This document shows positions 27,081 through 40,023 of a DNA stretch of 56,871 nt, in pieces. Source of the DNA: an uncultured Gammaproteobacteria bacterium (lineage in GTDB: Bacteria; Patescibacteriota; Patescibacteriia; Magasanikbacterales; UBA922); NCBI GenBank assembly GCA_964435035.1, contig CAYSXR010000005.1, positions 10,564 through 67,434 of the forward strand. The letters are read 5' to 3'. The notes below the pieces were generated by a model that worked only from the letters and a program-made list of their open reading frames with translations, ran no database searches and was not told where the DNA came from. Within the stretch, counting starts at the first letter, position 1, and every line of letters starts with the position of its first letter. The position numbers were made by a program, and so were the translations under genes.

Positions 27081-27148
27081 ATATGAAAGGTAGGAACCGT
27101 CATGCGCGATATGGAAGTATATGCGCACATGACGGGGATTCAGCGGAC

Positions 27149-27559
27149 TCAGGGGAGTTCGAGAATCTTGGTGAACAGTGCCTGCAGATCGAGCGTACCT
27201 TCATCATCGGTCATCGCGATCTCTGTCAGGCACTGAGTTGGCAGATCATGTGACTGCTGACTGAATGCCGGACTGTGGTTGTAGACGCCGGCGAAGGTAC
27301 GTGGAGGGTTCTTTTCGTCGAATTTCCGAGACATCATCGGGGCCCTCGTTTCCTGGATCAGGATGAAGGCACGGGTCGAATCGAGCGGAATCATGCCGAT
27401 CACGCGAAACGTCTGGTGAGTGTAGTCGCACACGCGCCCTTTGTTGTAGACGAAGCGCACAGTGAAGACCGGGTGAGTTCCACTTGTGTGCATGGAGTAG
27501 TACAGACTGGTGACGAGTTCGTCCCAGCCAGGACCTCTATTGATGATGAGTGTGAGCAT
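27149..27559 (-). CDS. hypothetical protein (136 aa) in a GC-rich patch
   Basis: The minus-strand frame shows strong C/G third-position bias (ctc atc ggc gac gtc acc ...) and a protein-like sequence. The overlapping plus-strand ORFs look like shadows. Confidence 0.6.
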   Translation of the reverse strand: MLTLIINRGPGWDELVTSLYYSMHTSGTHPVFTVRFVYNKGRVCDYTHQTFRVIGMIPLDSTRAFILIQETRAPMMSRKFDEKNPPRTFAGVYNHSPAFSQQSHDLPTQCLTEIAMTDDEGTLDLQALFTKILELP

Positions 27560-27681
27560 GCGTTGCCCCTATCCGGTTGTTGTATTTGATTGAAGCACAC
27601 GAGAGAGTAATGCTTCTTCAGGAAAAGATTATCACAATATGTGATTTTGTAAAGGAGGGGAGTATGTTATACTAAAATTCT

Positions 27682-35232: not shown

Positions 35233-35643
35233 TTGACTGAGAATGAATGGAAAAAGAAAATTTATAATTCATCCCGACATAATCGGGATGAATTTTTTAT
35301 TATAGCAAAAGTAGATAGTCAAATTGTAGGAATGGTAGGTGCTGAATTAAAGGATGGGGGTATATGGTCTCTTAAATCAGTGTATGTCGCATTCGAATAT
35401 CGAGGGCAGGGTATTGGGACGAGACTTCTTGAAAAAATAATAGAAAAACTTGAAAGAAATCGTCATGCACATATGATTGAACTTACCGTAAATACGGTAC
35501 AGTCAGCTGCAGTCAGTGTGTATAAGAAATGTGGATTTACCGTGAGAGAGGTTAAAGAAAATCAAGAATCAGGGGATGGAAAAAAATATACAAAATTTAA
35601 TATGTACCGCAATTTTTATCCAGTATCTGTAAGTTATAATTAG
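35233..35643 (+). CDS. GNAT family N-acetyltransferase (start codon problematic)
   Basis: Acetyl-CoA motif EYRGQGIGTRLLEKII. The frame stays open upstream to 35062 and encodes a GNAT-like N-terminus (IKITIPKVTEWKEFRALRLQALKNEPHAF) with no ATG/GTG/TTG before TTG 35233. Confidence 0.75.
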   Translation: MTENEWKKKIYNSSRHNRDEFFIIAKVDSQIVGMVGAELKDGGIWSLKSVYVAFEYRGQGIGTRLLEKIIEKLERNRHAHMIELTVNTVQSAAVSVYKKCGFTVREVKENQESGDGKKYTKFNMYRNFYPVSVSYN

Positions 35644-35683
35644 TTTTAGCTAAGTAGTTATCCCCAAATAACATATAATTTGT

Positions 35684-35711
35684 TTGACAGGGAATCTTTC
35701 CATGGTATATT
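35684..35711 (+). promoter_or_regulatory. sigma70-type promoter of GC-rich RNA locus 1
   Basis: TTGACA 35684-35689, 16-nt spacer, TATATT 35706-35711. Confidence 0.6.
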
Positions 35712-35717
35712 AGACAT

Positions 35718-36142
35718 AGGTTCACTCACACATAAGTTTCACCACAGCATCTATTCTGTAAAAATGTACAGTATGAATGGTGTGGTGAAGTTGTGGGGCG
35801 TCGAAAATACCAAAGCCTTGGTCATAGGCATCTTTCGACCATTCTCTTGGTCTTTCTTCGCTCCTCACTTCTCTCCACCATCTTGCTTCGCTGTTTGTGG
35901 GTACTTTGTTTCTACGAGTACCCGATTCCTTGAGACACATCTTGTCTCGGTCTCCCGCGGTATTTACCTCGGACAAACACAGAAAGGGGATTTCGGTCTC
36001 CACAAGCAAGCCATTCGACGGGATGTGTTTCGTCGAAAACAGTTCTTTCGTTCCATAGGGGCGACAACCATACGTGCAAACGTGTGTACGTCGCCCCTCC
36101 GTACACTTTCGTTTTCTTAATTGTAAAAGGAAACAAGAGCAA
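35718..36142 (+). ncRNA. unclassified GC-rich structured RNA candidate 1 (about 425 nt plus terminator)
   Basis: Many strong local stems, for example CACCACA/TGTGGTG (35740/35781), GGGTACT/AGTACCC, TTCGACG/CGTCGAA, and AGGGGCGAC/GTCGCCCCT (36057/36090). ORFs on both strands have non-protein-like composition. The 5-prime end is inferred from the promoter. Confidence 0.55.
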
Positions 36143-36177
36143 AGCAAAATAACCGATTAAAAATCGGTTATTTTGCT
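36143..36177 (+). terminator. intrinsic terminator of RNA locus 1
   Basis: 15-bp perfect stem AGCAAAATAACCGAT / ATCGGTTATTTTGCT. Confidence 0.75.
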
Positions 36178-36216
36178 TAAATTAGCTAAATTTAAACTTT
36201 ATGCATAGCTTAAGTA

Positions 36217-36245
36217 TTGACAAATATAAAAAAGTATGGTAAAAA
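36217..36245 (+). promoter_or_regulatory. putative promoter of GC-rich RNA locus 2
   Basis: TTGACA 36217-36222, 17-nt spacer, weak -10 TAAAAA 36240-36245. Confidence 0.45.
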
Positions 36246-36251
36246 CTTTCT

Positions 36252-36602
36252 AGTTCTTGAAACGAGATTGGGTGTAATTCCCTTGCGTACTATTTAGTAT
36301 GATACGAGATCATAACAAATAGTACGCAAGGGAGGTTAGAGGTGCTCTCTTCCGCGCGTAGTGTGTGGGAGAGTGCGCACTCATCCCGATCTCCACCGTC
36401 CGTGCGGACGGAGACATGCTTGTATGCTGGACGCAGCAGAGGCATACGTACCTCCGAGCACCATGCGGTTGTGGTGTGGTCTGTGTGGCTACATCACACT
36501 GCAGATGCTTCCTACAGGGAGGGTAGGAAGGAGATTACGAGGGGGAATGGCATTAGGACCATCCCCTCGAACACACTTTCATTTTCTCATTTGAGGAGAT
36601 AA
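36252..36602 (+). ncRNA. unclassified GC-rich structured RNA candidate 2 (about 350 nt), partial paralog of candidate 1
   Basis: 16-bp perfect stem 36280-36295/36317-36332; CCGTCC/GGACGG; CTTCCTAC/GTAGGAAG (36508/36523). Its 3-prime module CCCCTCGAACACACTTTCATTTTCTC (36563-36588) matches CCCCTCCGTACACTTTCGTTTTCTT (36094-36118) of candidate 1. Confidence 0.55.
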
Positions 36603-36649
36603 GAGCATACAAAAAAATCCAGATGTAATCTGGATTTTTTTGTATGCTC
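36603..36649. terminator. bidirectional intrinsic terminator (RNA locus 2 / YibE-F gene)
   Basis: 21-bp stem GAGCATACAAAAAAATCCAGA / TCTGGATTTTTTTGTATGCTC. Confidence 0.8.
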
Positions 36650-36650
36650 A

Positions 36651-37898
36651 TTAATGTGTGTGTTGATGATCTATGAGTGTTTCTGGAGAAACAAGAGGTT
36701 TTCTTTTACTATAATAATGTACGGCAATGAATGTAACAATGGGTACTGCAATAATAAGTGTGGTACTTCCAATAATCATCCGTATTACTTCTTCTAGAAT
36801 GATCTCACTGTTTAGAGTGACCCACGCCGGTCTCTCGTAAATAGTAAATAATAAAATAAGTGGAAGTGACGCACCGGTGTATGCAAGTACGAGTGTGTTT
36901 ACGAGAGAGAGGATATGTTCGCGTCCAACAATGGATGCACGTAGATAGAGCTCTCTTGCGCTTAATTCTGGATTAGCATGATAAATTTGTTCGACGACGG
37001 CTGCTTGAGCAGTGGTAATATCATCGAGAATTCCTAAGACTCCAATAATGATACCCCCGAGTAATAGCCCACGCAGATTGATTACTGCTCCTGGAGCAAA
37101 TTGGAGGTAAAATGCTTCTTCACTTCCCATACCAAACAAGTGTGTAAAAGTAACAAAGAAATACGAAAGTATGAGCGCAGCACTGATAGAAATAATGGTG
37201 GCGAGAAGTGCGATTGAAGTGCGTGCGTGGAATCCATGTGCTATGTAGAGTGAGGTTGCTGCGATAAAACTTGTTCCAATAAGACTTATAAGCAGAGGAT
37301 TTGCACCTTGTATGATTTGAGGAACAATATACCAACCAATTACACCAAAGCTCATGAGAAGTCCTGCAAATGCTCTTAAGCCATGAAATTTAGTGAGAAG
37401 CAGGGTTATGCCTATAAAAATTGATAATACGACCCAGAGAGCATTGAGTCGATACACATCGCTGATGTAGTGCTGGATTTCATTTGCAATAATACTTTTT
37501 CCTACAATAATATGATCTCCAACTTCGAGCTTCCATCCAGGAGTATTTTGAAGTAGTACTTCGTTAACAACCGTAATAATAAGACCTTTTTCAGAACCAG
37601 AAAGTATCTCAACTTCGAGTTCTTGGACTAGGATAGTCTCACCCTCTCCGTAGCCATGTTGTTCTGTCTCTGAAATGATTCGAGTTATTTTTCCTCGGGA
37701 AAAATCGTCTTTTACTTCTACAGGCGCTTCAATATTATCAATATCAGTTTCAGGAAATGTAAATGAATCGTCAGTTAGAATAGCCTCACTGACTGATCCG
37801 GGAATTGGAGTAGTCTGTGCGTGAGCTTGATAACCAAATATCGAACATAGTATCAAGAGAAAAACAACGTAAATAATTTTTTGTTGCATAGTATACAT
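36651..37898 (-). CDS. YibE/F family membrane protein
   Basis: Signal/anchor plus an extracellular domain, then 6-7 TM helices with LNALWVVLSIFIGITLLL...GANPLLISLIGTSFIA, typical of YibE/F. Confidence 0.8.
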   Translation of the reverse strand: MYTMQQKIIYVVFLLILCSIFGYQAHAQTTPIPGSVSEAILTDDSFTFPETDIDNIEAPVEVKDDFSRGKITRIISETEQHGYGEGETILVQELEVEILSGSEKGLIITVVNEVLLQNTPGWKLEVGDHIIVGKSIIANEIQHYISDVYRLNALWVVLSIFIGITLLLTKFHGLRAFAGLLMSFGVIGWYIVPQIIQGANPLLISLIGTSFIAATSLYIAHGFHARTSIALLATIISISAALILSYFFVTFTHLFGMGSEEAFYLQFAPGAVINLRGLLLGGIIIGVLGILDDITTAQAAVVEQIYHANPELSARELYLRASIVGREHILSLVNTLVLAYTGASLPLILLFTIYERPAWVTLNSEIILEEVIRMIIGSTTLIIAVPIVTFIAVHYYSKRKPLVSPETLIDHQHTH

Positions 37899-37948
37899 TT
37901 AAAACCTGAGTATATTGTATAGTATTCCAATAAAAAAGCATAGGTAGA

Positions 37949-37977
37949 TTGACAAAATGGCTACATTTAGGTATTCT
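37949..37977 (+). promoter_or_regulatory. sigma70-type promoter of the GC-rich mini-gene
   Basis: TTGACA 37949-37954, 17-nt spacer, TATTCT 37972-37977. Confidence 0.6.
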
Positions 37978-38021
37978 GTATGCGGTTTCTAAATAGAACC
38001 TCAGCTAGGAGAAGAGTGAAC

Positions 38022-38243
38022 ATGTCTGTTGTTCAAGTCGATCCGATCACGGGGAACGTGTTCGTCAGTGTCGCTCGTAGGGCGGAAACCCATACCGAGC
38101 CACACGCCAACCACGCCGACCTGATCAAGCCCTCCGATGATCCCTCGTGGATCGAATCGCTTCCCGAGGAAGAGAGGGAGGCTGCACGTGAGCGATCGCG
38201 GAAGGTACAGGAGGACCACGACACGCACTTCCCGCTGCCCTAA
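38022..38243 (+). CDS. small acidic His-rich protein (73 aa), hypothetical, GC-rich
   Basis: AGGAGA about 11 nt upstream of the ATG. G/C-ending codon bias in this frame. Sequence MSVVQVDPITGNVFVSVARRAETHTEPHANHADLIKPSDDPSWIESLPEEEREAARERSRKVQEDHDTHFPLP. Confidence 0.5.
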   Translation: MSVVQVDPITGNVFVSVARRAETHTEPHANHADLIKPSDDPSWIESLPEEEREAARERSRKVQEDHDTHFPLP

Positions 38244-38328
38244 GCGTTCATCAACACGCCACATGTTCGTGACCAGTCGCTTTCAAGCGCGCCTGGTCAC
38301 GAACGAAACTTCATCACGAAAATAGAAG

Positions 38329-38356
38329 CGACCAACCAAAGGTCGTTTTGTGTTTT
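38329..38356 (+). terminator. intrinsic terminator (preceded by the 12-bp-stem hairpin at 38265-38304)
   Basis: CGACC-AACCAAA-GGTCG followed by TTTTGTGTTTTT. Upstream hairpin: GTTCGTGACCAG...CTGGTCACGAAC. Confidence 0.65.
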
Positions 38357-39635: not shown

Positions 39636-40003
39636 CTCGGCGGGCGGGGCTCGAACCCGCGACCCACTGGTTACAGTTTCCTCTCTCTTTCAAGAGAGAC
39701 TGGACTATGTCATCACCCATGCCGTAAACCTGGAAAATAAATCCTCCAAGAGCCTGGGGGTGCGGAGCGCTTCCCGCCCCGACAATGTCGGGGAAGTACT
39801 CCCATAAAGGGATAGTCTCTGAACCTTCCTAACCCATTACTAATTCCAGTAAAACTGGAGTATCAAGTTAGGCTTGGCTGCAGGTTACCCTATGAAATTC
39901 ATAGTAGCGGTTTCCTGCAATTCACTCCGTTGGCATCCTGACATTACTATCAGGAGCTGCTAATTTTTAACAGCCAGTTGCTCTACCACTGAGCTACCGC
40001 CGA
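39636..40003 (-). tRNA. tRNA-Asn (anticodon GTT) interrupted by a group I intron in the anticodon loop
   Basis: Exon 1 is 40003-39970 (TCGGCGG TA GCTC AGTGGTA GAGC A ACTGG CTGT). Exon 2 is 39673-39636 (TAA CCAGT GGGTC GCGGG TTCGAGC CCCGC CCGCCGA G). Joined, they give a 72-nt cloverleaf with loop CTGTTAA. Confidence 0.85.
39674..39969 (-). ncRNA. group I self-splicing intron (296 nt, no ORF)
   Basis: P1: exon GCUGU pairs with intron GCAGC, with a U-G wobble at the splice site. The terminal intron nucleotide is G (39674). Core elements are GCAGCCAAGCCUAAC (plus coords 39867-39883), GGUUCAGAGACUAU (39812-39825) and GACAUAGUCC (39702-39711), matching the Tetrahymena and Azoarcus cores. Confidence 0.85.
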
Positions 40004-40023
40004 ATATATGTAAACTAGGCTAC

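Follow-up and report, generated by a model that had tools for sequence, protein, structure and literature searches.

Two adjacent GC-rich transcription units in a Candidatus Magasanikbacteria genome as predicted genes for structured non-coding RNAs

Large structured non-coding RNAs of bacteria are exemplified by OLE, GOLLD, ROOL and raiA. Among smaller regulators, the intrinsically terminated trans-acting sRNAs, including those derived from 3'-UTRs, carry a conserved terminator-proximal module and span 50-250 nt, and sponge RNAs of the CsrB/RsmZ type are defined by GGA motifs in their hairpin loops. At the DNA level, integron cassettes combine conserved ends and structured attC sites with variable cargo. 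To our knowledge, almost nothing is known of regulatory or structural RNAs in CPR/Patescibacteria beyond the universal ones. In AT-rich bacteria, the GC-IGR approach has located large or unassigned structured non-coding RNAs in long GC-rich intergenic regions (PMC6429828, PMC8632094, PMC11109978).

The window analyzed here, a stretch of 56,871 nucleotides, belongs to a CPR bacterium, as a preceding sequence-only reading had assumed, and more precisely to Candidatus Magasanikbacteria. Between its convergent GNAT and YibE/F genes lie two units, A and B, on the + strand, which we consider probably to be independently transcribed genes for highly structured non-coding RNAs, the A family being under selection for its helices and B being an orphan. 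Both share a common build: a sigma-70-type extended -10 promoter, a long 5' hairpin about 20-25 nt past the start, a multi-hairpin GC-rich body and a homologous 3' module, in which a GC clamp is followed by an ACAC linker, by a hairpin whose CU-rich arm pairs with an SD-like arm (AAGGAG) and lastly by the intrinsic terminator. The anatomy, the non-coding status, the structural conservation and mosaic evolution of A and the lack of any known RNA family are shown by the sequences; transcription, RNA ends and any function of the two units are inferred.

Anatomy, composition and folding of units A and B

The features of the locus, all read on the + strand except for the bidirectional terminator, are as follows.

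35657..35672, +, palindrome GTTAT-N6-ATAAC, read from the sequence, just upstream of the -35 element of unit A
35684-36178, +, unit A, promoter to terminator, from the sequence
35684-35689 and 35706-35711, +, unit A promoter: TTGACA, 16-nt spacer, TG-n-TATATT (11/12 matches)
35718..36178, +, predicted unit A transcript, ~460 nt, start placed from the -10 element and end from the terminator
35738..35789, +, unit A 5' hairpin with 23-nt arms, an inverted repeat
35795..36035, +, unit A body, exchangeable "type 1" block, from the sequence and comparison with homologs
36037..36056, +, segment CAGUUCUUUCGUUCCAU, predicted to be single-stranded (unpaired in the MFE and consensus folds)
36057..36098, +, part 1 of the unit A 3' module: GC-clamp stem AGGGGCGAC/GUCGCCCCU around a small hairpin with a GCAA cap
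36099..36137, +, part 2 of the unit A 3' module: linker CCGUACAC, then the CU/GA hairpin 36108-36118/36127-36137
36142-36158/36162-36178, +, unit A intrinsic terminator, 17-bp perfect stem
36217-36649, +, unit B, promoter to terminator, from the sequence
36217-36222 and 36240-36245, +, unit B promoter, read by eye: TTGACA, 17-nt spacer, TG-n-TAAAAA
36252..36649, +, predicted unit B transcript, ~400 nt
36279..36333, +, unit B 5' hairpin, an inverted repeat whose 25-nt arms are 92% complementary
36334..36537, +, unit B body, G-rich, GC ~58%, several hairpins, from the sequence and folding
36538..36605, +, unit B 3' module: GC clamp CGAGGGGGAAUGG/CCAUCCCCUCG, linker AACACAC, CU/GA hairpin CUUUCAUUUUCUC/GAGGAGAUAAGAG
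36603-36624/36628-36649, bidirectional, unit B terminator, 22-bp perfect A-tract/U-tract hairpin, from the sequence

The promoter of unit A was the top site of a promoter scan, and the arrangement TTGAC-N17/18-TATAnT with an extended TG was present in all six of its homologs. The -10 element of unit B is weak and was not listed by the scan; TATTGACAAA within its promoter is common to the second unit of the related locus L007. The sequence-only reading, which had placed TTGACA, a 16- or 17-nt spacer and a -10 element before each unit, was accurate on this point, with the longer spacer and the weaker -10 in B. It had also described the terminator stems as perfect, which they are, and as 15 and 21 bp long, which had to be corrected to 17 and 22 bp. 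The hairpin at 36603-36649 serves both unit B and the convergent YibE/F gene (- strand, stop at 36651) as a predicted bidirectional intrinsic terminator. Upstream, the GNAT gene directly precedes unit A, and a terminator between them is absent.

The body of unit A holds a CU-rich tract (~35830-35895) and, past it, a series of GC-rich hairpins (GGGUAC/GUACCC, GAGACA/UGUCUC, a UUCG-capped stem and UUCGACGGGA/UUUCGUCGAA). The helices listed earlier proved exact, namely 16/16 pairs at 36280-36295/36317-36332 within the 25-nt arms of the B 5' hairpin, 9/9 at 36057-36065/36090-36098 in the GC clamp of A and 8/8 at 36508-36515/36523-36530 in B, and the GCAA-capped ACGUGCAAACGU hairpin was present as described. 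In the CU/GA hairpin of A, a CU-rich arm is paired with an SD-like AAGGA(A/G) arm. A pseudoknot between GUGUAC (36083-36088) and GUACAC (36100-36105), for which L007 has one compatible double change, was rejected as a simultaneous fold because the 9-bp clamp is too long to be bridged by the 2-nt connecting loop; the same pairing is possible as an alternative fold.

Both blocks had been called far more GC-rich than the genome. Against 39.1% GC for the whole window, this description fitted unit B (36252-36602, 51.0%, 99th percentile; 36330-36570, 58.5%), in which line 36361-36420, estimated at about 63%, counted 63.3%. The enrichment of unit A was only moderate (35718-36142, 46.4%; core 35800-36100, 49.8%; 35790-36140, 351 nt, 48.4%, near the 97th percentile among windows of 350 nt). 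Folding was compared with dinucleotide shuffles: with terminators, units A and B gave z values of -9.9 and -12.5. The body of A alone gave -7.9 on the + strand and -5.2 on the - strand, that of B -8.8 and -7.0, and the middle of B -5.2 and -1.7, so that the + strand folded better in both units. Control genes, two other GC-rich islands among them, gave -0.7 to -3.7, and the other GC-rich islets of the genome -0.7 to -2.6. The conserved helices of unit A moreover hold U-G pairs, which the opposite strand would read as A-C. Direct-repeat arrays and tandem repeats were not found. The intermolecular duplexfold energy between A and B did not exceed that of shuffles (P ~0.08), the method being unsuited to such lengths.

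Conservation, covariation and exchange at the GNAT/YibE-F site

Homologs of unit A were found at the GNAT/YibE-F site of four Magasanikbacteria lineages, giving six sequences (the window, L003, L005, L007, L012 and L017). Synteny around YibE/F homologs yielded those in L003, L005/L006 and L017, and pattern scans added L007, L012 and L014 (= L005). By the same synteny, nothing was present at the unit A site in L016, L018/19, L020/21, L030, L031, L032 and L070/71. Occupancy is hence patchy, at 4/13 lineages: unit A was missing from nine related lineages, eight of which are empty at the site while L004 holds a small ORF there, and unit A is therefore dispensable. L030 offered a clean empty site, at whose junction no flanking direct repeats were seen. 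The palindrome at 35657-35672 has a counterpart in L003 and L007 (TTATC-N4-GATAA), retained in the empty site of L030, and may represent an operator or a small hairpin. The neighbours at all examined loci were a TPP enzyme, aldehyde dehydrogenase, transketolase, GNAT, YibE/F, peptide deformylase and PriA, and no integrase, transposase, RT or nuclease lay within ~6 kb of the site at any of them.

Comparison of the six homologs revealed 12 pairs altered on both sides with pairing retained, and 88-95% of cells paired, whereas a control with slid partners gave 30-55%. By element, the 5' hairpin had 87.7% of cells paired and 6 pairs altered on both sides; part 1 of the 3' module had 100% paired and one A-U to G-C double change; and the CU/GA hairpin had 95.5% paired, 2 double-change pairs and several U-G pairs. 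The terminator was kept with 2 double changes, and promoter and terminator were intact in 6/6 homologs. The predicted single-stranded segment CAGUUCUUUCGUUCCAU was near-invariant across the six sequences, and a search for targets with its complement gave no site in the window besides itself. Between the window and L003, unit A had 7 pairs broken against 19-22 expected (0/2000 permutations as good) and 4-6 double compensations against 0.9 expected; for the type 1 body, 2-3 pairs were broken against 8-9 expected, with 2 double compensations. The type 2 body (L005/L007) exhibited no excess of pair-preserving substitutions. With six sequences, four lineages and three body types, the covariation is to be read as suggestive rather than as statistics of R-scape grade. 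The 3' module was 69-91% identical in every pair of homologs, as against 27-62% at the 4-fold sites of YibE/F, which are saturated. The high identity of the body between the window and L003 may reflect recent transfer rather than constraint. Taken together, the comparisons support the prediction that unit A is a non-coding RNA selected for its structure.

In alignment, unit A, unit B and the second unit of L007 proved to carry homologous 3' modules (at L007 2008-2112 in the last of these), the module of B being 86% identical to that of L007 over 81 nt. The shared module proposed by the sequence-only reading was thus real, and it extends further, through the second hairpin and the terminator. 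At the B position of L007, the module follows a gene for a 71-aa protein, so that the module alone is no marker of an RNA gene. A model of the module (R1) scored A at 143 bits and B at 94 bits; when it was run over 190 kb of related DNA, scores of 92 bits or more were confined to its eight training sequences, the remaining matches being terminator-only and at most 40 bits. When its pattern was run against 185,579 species-representative genomes, 9 stretches were returned, of which 3 were true homologs (L007, L012 and L014 = L005). One pattern for both the A-type and the B-type module returned 8 stretches from JGI metagenomes, all due to chance or unrelated; one of these, L024, shares 22 nt, probably by chance. 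The module was not found in IMG/VR, phage and plasmid collections, where the IMG/VR scans returned nothing or generic GC hairpins only and blastn against phages and plasmids nothing meaningful. Homologs of the unit B body were likewise not found in the fetched related loci, phages or plasmids. Having no homolog outside its 3' module, B receives no evolutionary support, and its standing as a putative RNA gene is a matter of thermodynamics, strand asymmetry and shared architecture; the earlier view of both units as functional structured RNAs was accordingly upheld by comparative data for A and not for B.

Unit A is a mosaic. L003 and L007 have YibE/F proteins that are 94% identical and share 91% identity in both the promoter and the 3' module, whereas their unit A bodies (~300 nt) were 50% identical in alignment, i.e., non-homologous. 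The type 1 body of the window was 91% identical to that of L003 and non-homologous to those of L005/L007 and of L012/L017, which gives three body types. The 5' hairpin and body together form an exchangeable block that was swapped between lineages by recombination in the conserved flanks. Since the 3' module also stands behind a protein gene and the A body is exchangeable, units A and B resemble modular cassettes occupying a variable site more than RNAs of the housekeeping type.

Known RNA families, coding potential and rival explanations

At the gathering threshold of Rfam 15, the window matched only a group I intron (39681-39979, ~3 kb from the units) and three tRNAs, and in six related loci the group I intron alone passed. 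At E<=10, the region 35500-36800 gave only hairpin-type noise, with no match to SRP or 6S RNA. ARAGORN found the three tRNAs and no tmRNA in the window, and the Rfam tmRNA was likewise absent. The earlier statement that the units are not RNase P RNA, tmRNA, SRP or 6S RNA thus stood and could be extended to every other Rfam family. In particular, RNase P RNA (bacterial A/B and archaeal models) was rejected since it gave no match at gathering or E<=10, the P4 strands GAGGAAAGUCC and ACAGAA..GGCUUA are absent from the sequence, and the body of unit A is unconserved between close relatives. At the units, riboswitches, ribozymes, introns, OLE, GOLLD, ROOL, HEARO and raiA fell below the gathering thresholds of Rfam 15. 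Retron ncRNA, TnpB-IscB omega RNA and CRISPR/TIGR arrays were dismissed on the basis that no RT, TnpB/IscB, Cas or Tas gene adjoins the sites in the window and related loci, in accordance with the sequence-only reading as to RT, TnpB/IscB and Cas, and that no repeat array was found. A Csr/Rsm sponge was rejected as well, since GGA is absent from every hairpin loop predicted for A or its homologs and occurs in two loops of B.

ORFs occur on both strands of the units, with translations previously judged non-protein-like, and no coding signal was detected in them. No ORF was conserved among the six A homologs, frame and extent differing in each; the indels between the window and L003 are of 1 nt, and the 3' module falls in different reading frames in different homologs. 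GC at codon positions 1/2/3 was flat and without periodicity in the ORFs of A (0.46/0.44/0.48) and B (0.47/0.60/0.59), whereas native and GC-rich orphan genes were clearly periodic (0.53/0.36/0.28 and 0.68/0.42/0.70 in real genes). On two copies of the unit A sequence, gene callers proposed a 72-aa and a 118-aa product on opposite strands. Concatenated six-frame translations of A and of B found no match among the 5.8 billion proteins of a predicted-protein collection, a weak negative in that ORFs called on L001 and L002 also failed to return. The small proteins belonged to no significant family in Pfam, PHROGs, PADLOC or NCBIfam. The 71-aa protein of L007, the 81-aa protein of L004, which is homologous to it and lies at the A position, and that of the GC-rich unit C (38022-38243) gave no tblastn match to A or B.

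That A and/or B encode small proteins (a 146/118-aa ORF on the + strand or a 141/72-aa ORF on the - strand in A, an 86-aa GTG ORF in B) could be read from the long ORFs in exactly complementary frames of A, from the two products called on copies of A and from GGGAGG-N6-GTG at 36342 in B. The reading is nevertheless very improbable, given that no frame is kept and 1-nt indels shift it, that codon-position periodicity is missing and the two gene calls oppose each other, that the conserved 3' module changes frame, that the translations have no protein relatives, and that the SD-like motif of B is buried in the 25-bp hairpin. Equally hard to credit is a highly diverged known RNA (RNase P, tmRNA, SRP, 6S, group I/II intron, omega RNA or retron ncRNA). 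CPR RNAs are often divergent and a group I intron lies ~3 kb away, but the window and six related loci yielded hairpin noise alone at E<=10, ARAGORN was negative, no RT, TnpB, IscB or Cas gene, repeat or array is adjacent, nine related lineages lack unit A, and the non-homology of the body between close relatives rules out a housekeeping RNA. Somewhat less remote, though improbable, are non-functional leftovers of horizontally acquired GC-rich DNA or decayed small-gene cassettes, whose hairpins would be a by-product of composition and whose conservation would reflect recent spread. In keeping with this, other GC-rich islets are protein-coding orphans (unit C and a 136-aa ORF at 27149-27559), B is unique to the window genome and A is dispensable; yet those islets fold at z -0.7 to -2.6 as compared with -7.9 for A and -8.8 for B, the substitutions in A avoid pair breakage and include compensatory doubles, its 3' module by far exceeds the saturated synonymous sites in conservation in each pair of homologs, and all six homologs retain an intact promoter and terminator.

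A possible, if unlikely, account holds that the GNAT/YibE-F spacer is a recombination hotspot for selfish or conflict mini-cassettes, each made of a promoter, interchangeable cargo (structured RNA or small basic protein) and the common 3' module, with A and B as cassette alleles rather than regulators of host genes. As cargo one could think, for example, of an RNA or protein toxin-antitoxin pair, or of a determinant of anti-phage or inter-strain specificity. Body replacement between genomes with 94% identical YibE/F, the three discrete body types, the homologous small ORFs at the B position of L007 and the A position of L004, the 4/13 occupancy with a clean empty site in L030, and a composition unlike that of the host genome would all suit this account; against it, mobility genes are missing within ~6 kb at every locus, the empty-site junction has no direct repeats, the 3' module was found nowhere else in 190 kb of related DNA or in IMG/VR, phage and plasmid collections, and searches with the small proteins gave no defence or toxin family. 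A broader version is quite doubtful, in which undescribed recombining mini-cassettes of CPR bacteria would place a fixed promoter and three-hairpin 3' module around a cargo acting as specificity determinant, which would be a small basic protein or else a large structured RNA belonging to one of several unrelated types, with a role such as RNA-based toxin-antitoxin, decoy or immunity in a context of conflict or symbiosis. If true, it would explain both the discrete body types and their exchange between close relatives.

Possible roles and comparison with known systems

Returning to the preferred reading of two structured RNA genes, unit A is a putative new, lineage-restricted family of structured non-coding RNA, and unit B an apparent orphan paralogous unit. 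Their most probable mode of action would be that of stable trans-acting RNAs. The 3' module would terminate transcription, shield the 3' end and perhaps offer a common protein handle, and the 5' hairpin would shield the 5' end; the specific interaction with an RNA or protein partner would fall to the exchangeable body together with the conserved, single-stranded, CU-rich segments.

Unit A is ~460 nt long and highly structured, falls outside every Rfam family and has apparent helix selection, and these traits make it a tangible candidate for a new class of RNA within a host group of reduced, probably symbiotic bacteria. A fixed promoter and 3' module, a body swapped between near-identical genomes and the module on a small-protein mRNA are unusual for bacterial sRNAs, and this modular pattern could indicate an RNA that carries specificity, or a way for small genes and RNAs to interconvert. 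As long as expression and a partner have yet to be demonstrated, its practical value is modest, the A family being rare and dispensable.

As in integron cassettes, the conserved 3' element of A and B is structured, the cargo is interchangeable, the units lie in tandem and occupancy is patchy; unlike such cassettes, the units each have their own promoter and one known site, with no nearby integrase and no integrase domain among the neighbours. With CsrB/RsmZ they have in common a length of a few hundred nt, consecutive stem-loops and their own promoter and terminator, whereas the loop GGA motifs are missing in A and confined to two loops in B. The intrinsically terminated sRNAs resemble them in the conserved 3' terminator hairpin with adjoining conserved single-stranded or hairpin elements, and those derived from 3'-UTRs also in that the module of A and B occurs both on an mRNA (L007) and on predicted non-coding transcripts and that unit A stands right behind the GNAT gene, with no intervening terminator; A and B are, however, much longer (400-460 nt) and far more structured. 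The GC-IGR ncRNAs are likewise promoter-to-terminator units of several hundred nt, GC-enriched relative to the genome, with many stable helices, no ORF and a function unknown at discovery. Compared with them, A and B match no Rfam 15 model and are far narrower in spread (four lineages of one candidate phylum), and the central ~300 nt of A are not conserved but come in discrete, exchangeable types.

Anatomy, folding and coding potential

The interval 35684-36649 was found to hold two tandem units on the + strand, units A and B, flanked by a GNAT acetyltransferase gene and a convergent YibE/F gene. As listed below, both are predicted promoter-to-terminator units, with GC contents of 46.4% (A) and 51.0% (B) against 39.1% in the whole window.

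Features of the GNAT/YibE-F spacer and its flanking genes
35233-35643, +: GNAT acetyltransferase gene, upstream neighbour
35684-35711, +: unit A promoter, TTGACA-16-TG-n-TATATT (11/12 matches; top site of the promoter scan)
35738-35789, +: unit A 5' hairpin, 23-nt arms
Unit A middle, +: CU-rich tract, then several GC-rich hairpins
36057-36065/36090-36098, +: unit A GC clamp, 9 bp, enclosing a GCAA-capped hairpin
Unit A second 3' hairpin, +: CUUUCGUUUUCUU paired to AAGGAAACAAGAG
36142-36178, +: unit A terminator, 17-bp perfect stem
36217-36245, +: unit B promoter, TTGACA-17-TG-n-TAAAAA (weaker -10; read by eye)
36279-36333, +: unit B 5' hairpin, 25-nt arms
Unit B body, +: 58% GC
36538-36605, +: unit B clamp, linker and CU/GA hairpin, counterparts of those of A
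36603-36649: unit B terminator, 22-bp perfect stem, bidirectional, also ending YibE/F
36651-37898, -: YibE/F membrane-protein gene, convergent neighbour

Relative to dinucleotide shuffles, both units folded exceptionally strongly, with z = -9.9 (A) and -12.5 (B) when the terminators were included, and -7.9 and -8.8, respectively, for the bodies alone. Since the genes on either side and two further GC-rich islands gave only -0.7 to -3.7, this folding is not a by-product of composition, and the two GC-rich structured units noticed in the sequence-only reading were thus substantiated. The + strand outfolded the - strand (middle of B, z = -5.2 versus -1.7).

Unit A carries long ORFs on its two strands, their frames being exactly complementary, and B has long ORFs in each of its three + frames. 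A protein-coding reading is unlikely, because none of the frames was conserved among the six A homologs, 1-nt indels separated the window copy of A from that of the related locus L003, and GC by codon position was flat (A, 0.46/0.44/0.48; B, 0.47/0.60/0.59) compared with YibE/F (0.53/0.36/0.28) and the GC-rich small gene C (0.68/0.42/0.70). Automatic gene callers, moreover, contradicted each other on identical DNA, with products of 72 aa and 118 aa called on opposite strands. The non-protein-like character first ascribed to these ORFs was therefore upheld.

Across the whole window, Rfam 15 matches at gathering thresholds were limited to three tRNAs and one group I intron (39681-39979, -), and at E<=10 the A/B region produced only miRNA-type hairpin noise; the six related loci gave the same outcome, with no family for the units. 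ARAGORN found no tmRNA, no repeat arrays were detected, and the full-text literature yielded nothing relevant on CPR or Magasanikbacteria RNA motifs. A diverged copy of a known RNA is thus unlikely, given the negative Rfam 15 (even at E<=10) and ARAGORN results, in agreement with the original reading, in which no signatures of RNase P RNA, tmRNA, SRP RNA or 6S RNA were found.

The intron (RF00028, 88 bits) interrupts the anticodon loop of a tRNA gene at 39637-40012 (-), uncalled by ARAGORN, whose exons are GGCGGTAGCTCAGTGGTAGAGCAACTGGCTGTT... and ...AACCAGTGGGTCGCGGGTTCGAGCCCCGCCCGCCGA and whose anticodon may be GUU (Asn); L003, L004 and L005 conserve this intron, likewise 3' of peptide deformylase. 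A third GC-rich promoter-to-terminator unit, C (37940-38345, +), combines an acidic 73-aa ORF (38022-38243; GC3 70% versus 28% in YibE/F) with an SD site and a TTGACA promoter, and its folding is unremarkable (z = -2.5). Because its L003 ortholog (68% identity) shows 13/9/24 substitutions at the three codon positions, with one indel of 3 nt, unit C reads as a real small protein gene; the protein has no family, matching only itself and three weak entries among 1.84 billion representatives. At 27100-27560, a further island of about 55% GC holds a 136-aa ORF (27149-27559, -; GC3 69%), whose lack of any Pfam, PHROG, PADLOC or NCBIfam match suggests an acquired orphan gene.

Distribution of unit A and selection on its helices

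Homologs of the YibE/F protein place the organism in Candidatus Magasanikbacteria, and the block of TPP enzyme, aldehyde dehydrogenase, transketolase, GNAT, spacer and YibE/F was syntenic in every relative fetched. Unit A occupied exactly the same site in L003 (GCA_018061425.1; 89% identity to the window over 477 nt), L005 (= L014), L006, L007, L012 and L017, providing a comparison set of six distinct sequences from four lineages. It was missing from the site in nine other lineages, eight having a short or overlapping spacer and the ninth, L004, a GC-rich 81-aa ORF in its place. L030 seems to represent a cleanly empty site, in which the palindrome otherwise found upstream of A and the initial half of the -35 element run directly into the YibE/F end. 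No further true homologs came from pattern scans (species-representative genomes, JGI metagenomes, IMG/VR) or from blastn against phages and plasmids; the family is rare, and it is dispensable.

The palindrome, GTTAT-N6-ATAAC in the window (35657-35672, immediately 5' of the -35 of A) and TTATC-N4-GATAA in L003, L007 and L030, varies in arm sequence across lineages with complementarity kept, and in L030 persists though unit A is missing from mid -35 onward; a regulator might bind this palindrome, or it could form the GNAT 3' hairpin. The records of L007 (CAYUTO010000001.1) and L012 (CAYWFD010000038.1) are titled 'uncultured Gammaproteobacteria bacterium', a label that is probably wrong judging from their synteny with Candidatus Magasanikbacteria MAGs, whose YibE/F proteins theirs match at 94-96% identity. 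In L024 (Ga0114919_10058915, 2150-2830), two small ORFs each lie about 7 nt 3' of a TTGACA/TATAGT promoter and so appear leaderless. The second is followed by a terminator whose loop contains CCCCTTTACACTTTCGTTTTCTTAATTG, with 22 nt identical to the 3' module of A, probably a chance pattern match.

Four-fold degenerate sites of the adjoining YibE/F gene, used as the neutral benchmark, were 27-49% identical between lineages (saturated) and 58-62% within the two closest pairs, and the 3' module of A (GC-clamp hairpin, ACAC linker, CU/GA hairpin and terminator) was 69-91% identical in every pair. Its promoter elements were likewise kept, yet identity in the 26-nt spacer after GNAT was only 38% even for L003 against L007. 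In the six-sequence alignment, 87.7% of cells in the 5' hairpin and 94.6% in the four 3' helices were paired, versus only 30-55% when partners were slid by 1-3 columns; in both the 5' hairpin and the set of 3' helices, six pairs had both partners substituted.

A permutation test, in which the observed substitutions were re-dealt and window-predicted pairs scored in L003, is not inflated by recent transfer. Only 7 pairs were broken against 18.7 +/- 2.7 expected (0/2000 permutations as low), 4-6 double compensations were observed against 0.9 (for example, GGGUAC/GUACCC to GGACAC/GUGUCC), and the body alone had 2-3 broken pairs against 8-9. The signal was weaker in the L012/L017 pair and absent from the L005/L007 body. 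Since several conserved pairs are U-G, which the other strand would read as A-C, the + strand is supported as the putative functional RNA strand of A. Non-functional foreign DNA is unlikely, because folding exceeds composition and the helices and 3' module of A are under selection.

Mosaic bodies and a shared 3' module

The body of A, the central part of about 300 nt, is an exchangeable block. L003 and L007 share 94% identity in YibE/F, 91% in the A promoter and 91% in the 3' module, and their bodies are non-homologous (50% in a forced alignment with 67 gap columns); the L003 body is instead 91% identical to that of the window, against 84% for YibE/F, and the L007 body is of the L005 type. Three types were distinguished (window/L003, L005/L007 and L012/L017), all GC-rich and multi-hairpin, folding at -0.35 to -0.39 kcal/mol per nt. 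The exchanged block extends from just past the promoter to a conserved single-stranded segment, CAGUUCUUUCGUUCCAU, preceding the GC clamp.

The 3' module of B aligns to that of A from clamp through terminator. Under a covariance model of the module, the six A copies scored 115-147 bits, B scored 94 and L007 2001-2108 scored 92, with <=40 bits elsewhere in 190 kb, every such match being terminator-only. The L007 copy forms the 3' end of another unit, located where B lies in the window and comprising a TATTGACAAA promoter, a AAAAGGAG Shine-Dalgarno site and a basic 71-aa ORF homologous to the L004 81-aa ORF; the module thus serves predicted non-coding and coding transcripts alike. No known family matches either small protein.

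Small basic proteins encoded in GC-rich units of the GNAT/YibE-F spacer
L004 11335-11580, -: 81 aa, MEPRFEEDRGVLIVGGQRY...
L007 2122-2334, -: 71 aa, MEAKFEHDCSFLVVGGRRFQ...

The 5' hairpin and body of B had no relative in the fetched loci or the collections searched, and B is best described as a putative orphan paralog with the architecture of A. The proposal of functional structured RNAs is accordingly supported for A, through selection on its helices and 3' module; B remains an orphan.

Possible mode of action and relation to known RNAs

Most likely, both units would yield RNAs that are stable and act in trans. End protection and transcription termination would fall to the 5' hairpin together with the three-hairpin 3' module. 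In this module an SD-like AAGGA(G/A) is always masked by pairing to a CU-rich arm, and the module may double as a handle for a common protein; the specific interaction would be made by the exchangeable body and by the conserved CU-rich segments that are single-stranded. No target was found within the window, no partner gene lies near the units, and the Csr-type GGA loop pattern is absent.

The main rival to such trans-acting RNAs is that the GNAT/YibE-F site harbours cassettes, either selfish or related to conflict, with a cargo subject to diversifying exchange. This explanation fits the patchy occupancy, the discrete body types and the alternation of RNA and small protein at the site, but no recombinase, second site or defence-family match was found.

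Neither unit could be placed among Rfam families, tmRNA, retrons, omega-RNA/array systems, Csr sponges or coding genes. We classify A as a new lineage-restricted family of structured ncRNA and B as an orphan built in the same way, both as predicted RNAs; they are real, unannotated and from a poorly explored phylum, and their modular, mosaic build is unusual. A and B resemble the unassigned structured ncRNAs that have been obtained from AT-rich bacteria by examining their long, GC-rich intergenic regions (PMC6429828, PMC8632094, PMC11109978), and they belong to no described family.
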